44,485 nucleotides of DNA, from IMG/VR virus record IMGVR_UViG_3300045988_082204; one strand, written 5' to 3'. A program made the position numbers and the translations under genes. Below the pieces are notes generated by a model that ran no database searches, had not been told where the DNA came from, and saw only the letters and a list, made by a program, of their open reading frames with translations. This stretch comes from a virus. The first letter of the stretch is position 1. Each line of letters starts with the position of its first letter. Shown here in pieces: positions 1-5,343 of this stretch.

Positions 1-55
1 CAACAGCTCCGTCGTGGCGAGGGGCAACAGCTCCGTCGTGGCGAGGGGCAACAGC
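1..55 (+). repeat. 55-nt terminal overlap, identical to 44431..44485 (circularisation signature)
   Basis: Direct comparison of the first and last 55 nt. The overlap is itself about 2.3 copies of the 24-nt unit caacagctccgtcgtggcgagggg. Confidence 0.95.
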
Positions 56-538
56 CAAATCGTAGACGCTGCACGAAATAATAACATCGAAATCAGCGGC
101 AATGCCCGTATAGTTTATAATCCATCAAACATTGATGAATATATAGATTTTTACGGGCTGGACGCGACTGACACAACGGTCAAGCTGTACAAGGCTGTGC
201 ATTTCTGCGGGAGTGTATACTGCTCAGACTACAACCACGAATTTATCTACCCCATAGGCGACGTTGTTACACCCGATAACGGTTTCGCCGAAAGTGTGCA
301 AATCGAATGCGGAGCCGGTATTCACCTTGCGTACAAGACGTGGGCTGTCGGCTACGGCGCATACTGGCCTGATCTTGCGATTTTGGAATGCGAATGCGAA
401 AAATCCGATGTGCTTGTACCGCTGTATGGCGACGGTAAAGTCCGGGCGCGCAAAGCAAAAGTGCTGCGTGAAGTACCGTTTGAAGAATGCGGATTGTACG
501 GCGAAATAATTGCGAAAAGAAGGGCAAACGATGAATAA
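2..538 (+). CDS. 3' part of the junction-spanning ORF (continues from 44288..44485): short-repeat protein of unknown function
   Basis: The frame of the 14..538 ORF is continuous with 44288..44485 once the overlap is collapsed. It carries GNSSVVAR/GNSQIV/GNARIV-type repeats, then a C-terminal module with an ECGAGIH motif. Confidence 0.6.
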   Translation, partial: NSSVVARGNSSVVARGNSQIVDAARNNNIEISGNARIVYNPSNIDEYIDFYGLDATDTTVKLYKAVHFCGSVYCSDYNHEFIYPIGDVVTPDNGFAESVQIECGAGIHLAYKTWAVGYGAYWPDLAILECECEKSDVLVPLYGDGKVRARKAKVLREVPFEECGLYGEIIAKRRANDE

Positions 539-1051: not shown

Positions 1052-1651
1052 GTGAGACACCTTGGTGACATCACAAAAATCAATGGCGCCGAGATTGAGC
1101 CGGTGCATTGCGTCATCGGTGGTAGCCCTTGCCAGGATCTCAGTATCGCAGGAAAACGCGCAGGGCTGAACGGTGAGCGCTCTGGACTTTTTATGGAGCA
1201 AGTACGAATTGTTAAGGAGATGAGAGAAAAATATGGAACAGCTTACCCTCGATTTATGGTGTGGGAAAATGTCACCGGAGCATTCAGTAGCAACAAGGGA
1301 GCCGACTTCGCGGCGGTCCTCACGGAAATCATCCGCATCGTCGAGCCGGAAGCCTCCGATATTGAAGTGCCTGAAAAAGGATGGCCTACTTGGGGAGGAT
1401 ACCACGATGAGGTGGGAGGACGATGGAGCGTGGTATGGCGAACTCACGATGCGCAATACTGGGGAGTGCCCCAACGCCGTCGCCGTATCTCGGTTGTCGC
1501 AGATTTTGGAGGAGACGCCGCATCCGAAATACAATTTGACCGCAAAAGCGTGTCAGGGGATATTGCGGAGAGCGGAGCGCCGGGGGAAAGACTTGCCGGA
1601 AACGCTGAAAGCGGTGCTTCTTATGCAGTCCGCATCAGGGGGGGGCTGTGA
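1052..1651 (+). CDS. Cytosine-5 DNA methyltransferase, catalytic-core segment (motifs III-VIII only)
   Basis: GTG 1052 follows AGGGAGAGG. Motifs present: GDIT, GGSPCQDLS (catalytic Cys), ENV, QRRRR. There is no FxGxG motif at the N-terminus. The frame ends at TGA 1649-1651, right after a G8 run. Confidence 0.7.
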   Translation: MRHLGDITKINGAEIEPVHCVIGGSPCQDLSIAGKRAGLNGERSGLFMEQVRIVKEMREKYGTAYPRFMVWENVTGAFSSNKGADFAAVLTEIIRIVEPEASDIEVPEKGWPTWGGYHDEVGGRWSVVWRTHDAQYWGVPQRRRRISVVADFGGDAASEIQFDRKSVSGDIAESGAPGERLAGNAESGASYAVRIRGGL

Positions 1652-2997: not shown

Positions 2998-3284
2998 TGA
3001 CAGCGGCAGAAGCAAAAAAGATTATACATCCCGACACTACGGCAGAAGCGCTTGCAGAAATCAAAAGCCAGAACGCAAAAGTTGCCGTAGTTGATGAGGC
3101 TTGCTTAGTGGCATGCGCTGCAATCGAAAAGCAGATACCGAAAAAGCCGACGAACTTTGCAATAGACAATAACGGTTACACAATCTATGACTGCGAGTGC
3201 CCAAGCTGCAAACAATCGCATCGAGAGCTTTTTCCGTTTGCTTTTTGCATTCACTGTGGGCAAGCGCTTGAATGGGAAGAATAA
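2997..3284 (+). CDS. Hypothetical protein with a C-terminal zinc-ribbon-like motif
   Basis: ATG overlaps the upstream stop (TAATG). CECPSC...CIHCG pairs. Confidence 0.55.
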   Translation: MTAAEAKKIIHPDTTAEALAEIKSQNAKVAVVDEACLVACAAIEKQIPKKPTNFAIDNNGYTIYDCECPSCKQSHRELFPFAFCIHCGQALEWEE

Positions 3285-4390: not shown

Positions 4391-4843
4391 ATGAACAACA
4401 AAGTCATGTTTTCCAGCGCTAAGAACGACTGGGAAACCCCGCAGGCGCTATTCGACGAGCTTGATAGGGAATTTAACTTTACCCTTGACGCAGCCGCGAG
4501 CCCGACTAACGCAAAGTGCGCCAAATACTACACCGAAGAAAATAACGGCCTTGCGCAGAACTGGTGCGGTGAAACGGTATTCTGCAATCCACCTTACGGC
4601 AGCAAGGCAACAGGCGAATGGACGCGCAAGTGCTACGAAGAAGCACAGAAGCCGGGAACAGTGGTCGTGCTGCTTATACCGGCGCGGACGGATCGCGCCA
4701 GCTTCCACGACTACATATTAAACAAAGCGGAAATACGGTTTCTGCGCGGGCGGCTTAAATTTGAACAGGGCGGTAAGCCTTTAGATTGCGCACCATTCCC
4801 ATCAATGATCTGTATTTGGAGGTCAACATGGCAAAAAACGTAG
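4391..4843 (+). CDS. Phage Dam-type DNA N6-adenine methyltransferase
   Basis: WETPQALFDELDREFNFTLDAAAS ... FCNPPYG (NPPY catalytic motif). Size and pattern fit small phage N6-A MTases. Confidence 0.8.
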   Translation: MNNKVMFSSAKNDWETPQALFDELDREFNFTLDAAASPTNAKCAKYYTEENNGLAQNWCGETVFCNPPYGSKATGEWTRKCYEEAQKPGTVVVLLIPARTDRASFHDYILNKAEIRFLRGRLKFEQGGKPLDCAPFPSMICIWRSTWQKT

Positions 4844-5343
4844 GCTGGGAAGCCAAAAGCAACCACGACGGCAGCTACACGGTTACCGTTAACGGCAAAC
4901 AATATTATTGTGCAGATACGCATGAATTTCTGCACTTTTTAGAAGATATCGGCGAAAGGTGGGGGATAGTGAAATTCGGAAAGGATGAACGCCGCGAGTT
5001 TTCGACCGGCGCTGTAAGGGATAGTGTGACCGGCAAGGGCGACATGATATCCCTCCCGTGGGAAGCACTCCTGCGGCTGTCTAAGCACTATGAGCGCGGC
5101 GCGGCGCATTACGGGCGCTGGAATTACACGAAGGGTATTCCGATATCATCGTTTATCGACAGCGCTTGCAGGCACTTGGCAAAGTATCAGTGCGGACTTG
5201 ATGATGAGGATCATCTTGCCGCCGCTGCATTCAACGTGCTTGGCGCGATGCTTATGGAAAACACAAGGCCGGAAATGCAGGACTTGCCGTTAAGAAAGGG
5301 AAAGAAAACGTTCGAGTATTTTGAAACGGAGGTAGAAACATGA
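4828..5343 (+). CDS. DUF5664-like protein (all-alpha NTP pyrophosphohydrolase-related domain)
   Basis: ATG 4828 follows GGAGG. The C-terminal half reads LPWEALLRLSKHYERGAAHYGRWNYTKGIPISSFIDSACRHL...DEDHLAAAAFN, recalled as the DUF5664 pattern. Confidence 0.6.
   Translation: MAKNVGWEAKSNHDGSYTVTVNGKQYYCADTHEFLHFLEDIGERWGIVKFGKDERREFSTGAVRDSVTGKGDMISLPWEALLRLSKHYERGAAHYGRWNYTKGIPISSFIDSACRHLAKYQCGLDDEDHLAAAAFNVLGAMLMENTRPEMQDLPLRKGKKTFEYFETEVET

Follow-up and report, generated by a model that had tools for sequence, protein, structure and literature searches.

Homopolymer phase-variable DNA methyltransferases are well known from the phasevarions of Neisseria, Haemophilus, Helicobacter and Campylobacter. 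Genes that overlap over a long distance on the same strand are, to our knowledge, considered uncommon in bacteriophages, and they are removed by annotation pipelines. The nearest precedent for the locus reported here is M.EcoHK31I, a C5 methyltransferase of E. coli HK31. According to the account in PMC2836561, referring to Lee, Kam & Shaw (1995), this enzyme needs a beta chain whose coding sequence sits within the alpha gene in a different frame. Our literature searches found no described nested gene in the methyltransferases considered below beyond M.EcoHK31I. Two-chain enzymes of the M.AquI kind provide a second comparator, in which fragment complementation is efficient at the position of the split (PMC5944983). 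A third is provided by circular permutants. In a 2018 survey of 20,677 REBASE entries, the Type B order, in which the N-terminus lies between motifs II and III and motifs I-II follow motif X, was seen only in engineered enzymes; the natural permutants were of Type H only, Type B was stated to be seemingly absent in nature, and the engineered Type B enzymes were the most active permutants (PMC5944983).

The DNA analysed here is a stretch of 44,485 nucleotides from a virus (IMG/VR record IMGVR_UViG_3300045988_082204), referred to below as the window. An original prediction, made from its sequence alone, had singled out a segment that is open in two frames and ends at a run of guanines. All features of the methyltransferase locus given below lie on the + strand.

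A naturally permuted methyltransferase gene occupying two frames

Positions 1052-2474 of the window constitute a phage cytosine-5 DNA methyltransferase gene that belongs to a naturally circularly permuted family. The gene is divided between two overlapping reading frames. ORF-A (frame 2, 199 aa, 1052-1651) runs from a GTG at 1052 to a TGA at 1649-1651, and an SD-like sequence, GGGAGAGG, can be read at 1036-1043, 8 nt 5' of the GTG. The same start site is an ATG in relatives, and 28 distinct fused relatives begin there. A cell-wall hydrolase gene (PF07486, 510-1049) ends 3 nt 5' of this start codon, and a TTG at 902, in the part of frame 2 that overlaps the hydrolase, is probably not the methyltransferase start. 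ORF-A opens with motif III (VRHLGDITK), followed by motif IV (GGSPCQ, 1118-1144), motif VI (ENV, 1265-1273) and motif VIII (QRRRR, 1472-1486); 3' of motif VIII it continues as an unconstrained tail up to the TGA. The original prediction had assigned motifs VI and VIII to frame 2, and both are read there, in agreement with a PF00145 match of 81 bits over profile positions 47-129 (Pfam cut-off, 22).

ORF-B (frame 0, 413 aa, 1233-2474) begins at an ATG and encodes the nested product described below and then the target recognition domain (TRD), motif IX (RRLTPLECTRLQGYPDGW, 2130-2183), motif X (GNSIALPF, 2259-2279), motif I (FDGIGGF within LGSLFDGIGGF, 2346-2366) and motif II (ASEIEAFP; ASEIEAFPIAVTKKHF, 2412-2435). 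It matches PF00145 with 36 bits, over profile positions 269-316 and a second stretch, against the same cut-off. The two frames together thus hold the features of a C5 DNA methyltransferase, namely motifs IV (PCQ), VI (ENV), VIII (QxRxR), IX and X and motif I (FxGxG).

Reading of the sequence confirmed that both + frames are open across 1233-1651 and that the frame switch coincides with a G8 homopolymer at 1638-1645, shortly before the TGA of ORF-A, exactly at the coordinates first proposed. There is no other G/C run of seven or more in the 44.5-kb window. The peptides ISVVADFGG and SRLSQILEE are, as had been noted, encoded by identical bases in the two frames. The proposal that loss of one G would fuse the frames also held, since removal of one G gives a single 473-aa protein that is colinear with its homologues (..AVRIRGG-CDGGGKG.., compared with ..IRSGCEGGGKG.. 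in the normal-order homologue L002).

The motif order of the gene is III-VIII, TRD, IX, X, I, II rather than the canonical I to X, and L002 reads exactly across the permutation join (..PIRVTTKRLPQ|VKHYGDIS..). The permuted order is common to all of the approximately 80 closest viral relatives. With its N-terminus between motifs II and III and motifs I-II placed after X, the enzyme is a Type B circular permutant. [quoted passage not shown] An AlphaFold2 model of a fused relative gave pLDDT values of 65-93 for the core (residues 1-160) and a poor TRD, with residues 163-414 (linker and TRD) all below 50.

Several neighbouring features were recorded. A phage Dam-type N6-adenine methyltransferase (PF05869, E = 1.5e-30) lies 2 kb downstream at 4391-4843. 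The ORF at 4828-5340, which carries the N-terminal domain of a dATP/dGTP diphosphohydrolase (PF18909, E = 1.3e-15) and adjoins the two methyltransferases, may be part of a nucleotide-pool or DNA-modification module. At the other end, an ORF running from the start of the window (2-538) opens with a tandem peptide repeat (NSSVVARG twice) and gave no Pfam match.

Evidence for a second gene in the +1 frame of the family

The original prediction took the frame-0 segment for a conserved region, and searches bore this out. With the frame-0 peptide (139 aa) as query, tblastn matched 137 phage records, and in those that are annotated the match sits in the +1 frame relative to an intact methyltransferase CDS; among proteins, the segment matches 3035 cluster representatives. 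Streptococcus phage Javan191, for example, contains a nested ORF of 131 aa with an ATG start, and phage NatCom_9291 one of 129 aa. Comparison of these sequences indicates that a second gene is nested in the +1 frame of this methyltransferase family, in permuted and normal-order members alike.

The sample used here was gathered by similarity in the methyltransferase frame only; it comprises approximately 200 loci from viral contigs and bacterial genomes, the latter ranging from Anaerostipes to Streptococcus, Clostridium and Veillonella. Of 191 loci, about 190 have a +1 frame across the WENV motif that stays open over 132-171 codons, compared with just 20-50 codons for the +2 frame of the same loci. 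Only in L191 is the nested frame shortened, to 77 codons, inside a methyltransferase ORF that is itself intact at 691 codons. In normal-order genes the nested ATG is fixed 9 codons 5' of the WENV Trp and the stop follows directly after ..ALE.QA..; in permuted relatives the first nested ATG is less fixed, lying up to approximately 19 codons 5' of this Trp and being absent in a few. The nested ORF lies wholly inside the methyltransferase gene in the G7 relatives and the normal-order homologues, and in the window it runs on into the TRD half.

The frame is also open in distant phages. It extends for 163 codons in P1 dmt (3.8 stops expected), 153 in Vibrio phage 24 (5.3 expected) and 159 in gp127 of mycobacteriophage Omega, and within the QNRER..GHLRG clade for 171 codons in Streptococcus phage Javan618 (5.7 expected) and 154 in C. 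difficile phage phiCDHM19, where 9.2 stops are expected at 30% GC and none is present. When codons were drawn from the usage of each gene, the 3.8-9.2 stops expected in these phages corresponded to a probability of an open frame between 0.01 and <0.0002, and to P < 0.001 where 5-9 stops are expected. Permutation of synonymous codons gave 1.8 expected stops and a probability of about 0.09 per sequence, with 42 of 45 non-redundant sequences open. As a control, E. coli dcm has merely 6 open codons over ENV in the nested frame. Chance openness was rejected at the level of the family, though the window on its own, with synonymous codons drawn from the gene, gives P = 0.06.

In the data collected here the nested gene always accompanies a methyltransferase gene and was never found apart from this family. 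It occurs across bacterial phyla in methyltransferase genes that are intact and unsplit, which indicates that the nested frame is not a by-product of a frameshift. This point was missed by the original prediction: judged from these comparisons, the second frame is independent of the frameshift, and the G8 tract merely fuses the nested gene to the TRD half.

Annotation of these loci is uneven. Public gene calls for L083 (2820-4187) and L084 give the nested ORF, of 153-154 aa, and drop or truncate the intact methyltransferase ORF of 455 codons. Because gene callers often report the nested ORF instead of the methyltransferase, databases contain thousands of wrongly labelled entries, with hundreds of stand-alone 'hypothetical proteins' that are the nested frame. 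The annotation of mycobacteriophage Omega (L206, 1107-2411) divides the methyltransferase between two CDS, gp127 and gp128, and the 159-codon nested frame ends within gp127. Two further proteins, P0020 and P0063, have motifs III-V joined in frame to nested-frame sequence, with the shift just after K-E-M-R, a layout that constitutes a third frame arrangement of the gene.

Selection and start signals in the nested frame

The original prediction proposed a search for suppressed synonymous variation, and this was found on pairwise comparison of 38 normal-order sequences of <85% nucleotide identity. In motifs I-V, where there is no overlap, the methyltransferase frame has a pS of 0.79 and a pN of 0.19. 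Within the overlap, pS falls to 0.57 over motifs VI-VIII (pN 0.23; nested-frame pN/pS 0.98) and to 0.28 in the linker after VADF, where methyltransferase-frame pN is 0.32 (pN/pS 1.14) and the nested frame has a pN/pS of 0.40. Diversity at methyltransferase codon positions 1, 2 and 3 is 0.25, 0.14 and 0.60 outside the overlap and 0.44, 0.26 and 0.24 after VADF, where the nested-frame wobble position is the most variable; the switch occurs at KRIYLVADF. It follows from these two data sets that conservation of the nested protein is limited to the last ~50 codons (~1491-1637 of the window), while the first ~85 codons are stop-free with their letters set by methyltransferase motifs VI-VIII. The nested frame of the window can accordingly be divided into a leader (codons 1-86, 1233-1490), which lies over motifs VI-VIII, and a conserved module (..SRLSQILEETPHPKYNLTAKACQGILRRAERRGKDLPETLKAVLLMQS, 1491-1637), which lies over the linker of the methyltransferase frame. 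The earlier view that both frames are protein-like therefore stands in that both appear to be coding, and has to be restricted in that selection on frame 0 is confined to the module.

The 5' limit of the nested frame in the window is a frame-0 stop (TGA, 1221-1223) that is forced by the Met-Arg codons of K-E-M-R. A purine-rich, SD-like stretch, 1214-1226, precedes the nested ATG and includes AAGGAG at 1214-1219 and GAGAG at 1222-1226. Of 45 normal-order representatives, 38 use AGG for the Arg of K-E-M-R, compared with 16% AGG among the remaining Arg codons of these genes, and this codon yields GAGG 10 nt 5' of the nested ATG. The spacing between SD and ATG is long: it measures 10 nt in normal-order members of the family, and in the window AAGGAG stands 13 nt from the ATG. 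Open frame, start and stop are thus kept beyond the demands of the host frame, and the second frame is under purifying selection, as expected of an overlapping gene.

Predicted structure of the nested product

AlphaFold2 modelling with 40 sequences predicts that residues 1-95 of the nested protein form a disordered leader (pLDDT ~50), rich in Ser, Lys and Arg, with a short helix at 87-91, followed by helices at 104-117 and 123-135 with pLDDT values of 86-90. The module, which has 18 invariant columns among the 40 sequences, is predicted to be a small basic helical hairpin (GILRRA..RGK.LP). No Pfam family was matched by any of the 40 members, and searches with the module against PDB sequences (E <= 10) and with Foldseek (E <= 0.001) returned nothing. 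The only match was to phrog_16143, 'DNA methyltransferase', in 31 of 40 nested members, and this family probably holds proteins of the ORF-B type.

In hhalign comparison of the nested profile with Dcm, the only match was to the segment right after motif VIII (..TLAQLLDPMVEAKYILTPVLWKYLYRYA; P = 0.003-0.004, probability 9%). Homology of the module to this in-frame Dcm segment is suggestive only. The module overlaps the strand of motif VIII instead of lying 3' of it, so that simple descent from the in-frame segment needs extra steps. Alignment of the whole of ORF-B to Dcm returned the motif IX-X block only.

Length states of the G tract

The original prediction had suggested comparing tract length among relatives, and it does vary, with G7 giving a fused gene and G8 a split one. 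G7, with one ORF, is the commonest state in close relatives. The window-type split by G8 is found in L033, L034, L036, L037, L038, L052, L063 and L077; the tract of L010 is G6, G9 and interrupted tracts also occur, and in one sub-lineage G6 is in frame and G7 split. L022 is split (+1) with the G run replaced by caGGAGTctgtgac (~3090-3110), so that the split state exists without a slippery tract. The nearest virus record (G001) gave no match to the methyltransferase region.

Tract length differs between otherwise identical sequences in two lineages, as it does in phase-variable genes. Contigs with G8 (L034, L036, L037 and L213-216) and a contig with G7 (L021) have 900-nt flanks that are 100% identical, and the same is true of L033 and L018 in a second lineage. 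In the sister lineage G8 is shared by four assemblies from four studies. Its exact ORF-B protein, P0457, is present on 190 contigs and the exact fused protein on 4, the 90% cluster of the latter having 83 members. The abundant G8 allele is clonal, and its abundance is therefore no proof that the split enzyme works. Shifts of the +1 kind occur in at least 9 sequence backgrounds, compared with a single -1 state. These comparisons point to a real, fast-changing length polymorphism of the G tract.

Two overlapping genes encoding a split enzyme, one of the explanations first offered, describe the architecture that the window displays. It is also common: the first 200 residues of ORF-B have matches in 3647 protein clusters, and more distant ORF-B proteins such as P0028, P0041, P0099 and P0147 have other junctions.

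A proposed nested subunit and its alternatives

We think it fairly likely that the permuted gene, the nested gene and the G-run toggle belong together, with the nested module acting as a subunit of the enzyme. The nested gene has a conserved SD and a start ~9-19 codons 5' of the WENV Trp, passes through a stop-free leader over motifs VI-VIII and ends in a ~50-aa helical module, encoded where the methyltransferase frame is merely unconstrained linker. The G run just 3' of the module changes in length much faster than point mutations build up. At G7 the locus encodes a single full-length chain, with the nested protein (145-156 aa) as a separate product. At G8, as in the window, it has two overlapping ORFs, a 199-aa piece with motifs III-VIII and a piece of 413 aa, the TRD-IX-X-I-II half, which begins with the nested protein. 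We infer that the main chain reads one piece of the enzyme out of frame and that the nested module is this piece, which would serve as a subunit in trans at G7 and in cis on the TRD half at G8. With the module in cis, the G8 form would be a two-chain enzyme comparable to M.AquI rather than simply an off state.

By analogy with the beta chain of M.EcoHK31I, the nested protein is probably a methyltransferase subunit. In both systems, going by the description in PMC2836561, the second polypeptide lies wholly inside the methyltransferase gene in another frame, and the main chain of M.EcoHK31I reads the beta segment out of frame. The two differ in that M.EcoHK31I beta carries motif IX, whereas in the present gene motif IX is read in frame with the TRD half and the nested module lies over motifs VI-VIII and the linker; moreover, the nested gene is family-wide across phyla and can become joined to the TRD half through the G run. 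Fusions of the nested protein to the TRD half, which bear on the subunit idea, are common and have diverse junctions. Compared with two-chain enzymes of the M.AquI kind, the overlap here is 419 nt long and is itself a conserved coding module, the window lineage exists as a single chain too, and the permutation causes the second chain to carry motifs I-II as well.

Classic on/off phase variation is possible, if doubtful, as a reading of the same data: G8 would be the OFF state and ORF-A and ORF-B inactive fragments, with the nested gene real and its fusion to the TRD half incidental. Methyltransferases switched by homopolymers are a well-known kind, and the likeness to phasevarion methyltransferases extends to a G run within the ORF that differs in length between otherwise identical sequences, here including G6 and G9 alongside the G7 and G8 forms with identical flanks. 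The preponderance of +1 states, in at least 9 backgrounds compared with one for -1, argues against it, as do the split of L022 without any homopolymer and the other junctions of diverse ORF-B proteins; going by sequence, these points speak against an OFF state and do not show that the enzyme is active. The present case further differs from phasevarions in that the gene belongs to a phage and the shifted state is a two-ORF architecture joining the nested gene to the rest of the enzyme, not a truncation.

We give tentative credence, too, to the idea that the nested protein serves some separate purpose with no bearing on catalysis, as a regulator of the gene, an anti-defence factor or a DNA/RNA-binding factor, lodged where it is tolerated. 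A small basic helical hairpin behind a disordered leader, as predicted, and the lack of a fold relative detectable by Foldseek would suit such a protein, and proteins born by overprinting are described in PMC8227390 as usually accessory in role. This sits poorly with the absence of the nested protein apart from the methyltransferase family in the collected data, with its repeated fusion to the TRD half and with its weak but correctly placed similarity to the Dcm segment after motif VIII.

A sequencing or assembly error was the first explanation offered by the original prediction. For this particular contig a miscall is conceivable but unlikely. In its favour, homopolymers are error-prone and G7 is the commonest state among relatives; the true phage would then have G7, a single 473-aa gene and a nested ORF ending 15 codons past the tract, as in most relatives. 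As a general explanation error is unlikely, because G7 and G8 occur with identical flanks and one G8 allele is carried by 190 contigs of the sister lineage, and because four assemblies from four studies carry the same shift, which recurs in at least 9 backgrounds.

Programmed recoding, in which the ribosome (+1) or RNA polymerase would slip on G8 to give full-length enzyme from the G8 allele, we regard as improbable. A +1 slip of tRNA-Gly in GGG GGG would re-pair perfectly, and the frame-2 stop is two codons downstream; this stop is not adjacent to the run, however, and no stimulator was identified. A conserved recoding signal at the G run was rejected, the tract being absent or interrupted in many fused relatives, which have G5, G6 or interrupted runs (agagggggc, aggggtggc, ccgaggcggatgc), and split relatives differ from one another in both tract and junction. 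Conservation of the nested frame far 5' of the run is, moreover, not something that recoding requires. The slippage-prone tract of the original prediction thus survives as a heritable length polymorphism between sequences with identical flanks, and not as a conserved recoding signal. That there is no nested gene at all, the second open frame resulting instead from conservation of the methyltransferase frame together with base composition, is scarcely credible, given a frame that stays open at 30% GC despite 9 expected stops, a wobble signature that switches frame, a conserved SD, ATG and stop and a closed nested frame in the dcm control, even with the P of 0.06 for the window alone and a leader whose sequence is dictated by the methyltransferase frame (pN/pS ~1).

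Implications for phage methyltransferases

The window enzyme and its relatives show that a permutation type reported to be absent from nature exists as a natural family. The nested overlap is conserved across bacterial phyla in a very common phage gene, including that of the model phage P1, and the presence of the nested frame in P1 makes the nested gene directly testable in laboratory E. coli. The homopolymer toggles the gene between a one-chain and a two-chain architecture and, should the nested protein act as a subunit in the way favoured above, would not simply turn the enzyme on or off. A wider possibility, which we put forward with considerable reserve, is that a large clade of C5 methyltransferases from phages, plasmids and conjugative elements, including P1 Dmt, consists of obligate two-protein enzymes with a nested subunit, and that the G run of the permuted gut-phage members switches between a free and a TRD-fused subunit, both forms being active; if so, the free-subunit and fused forms may differ, for instance in their specificity or stability or in how they are regulated. 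Without a subunit role, the nested protein would be a widespread phage protein that has no assigned role. If it is a subunit, many 'orphan' phage methyltransferases would have been expressed and assayed without a partner that they need.
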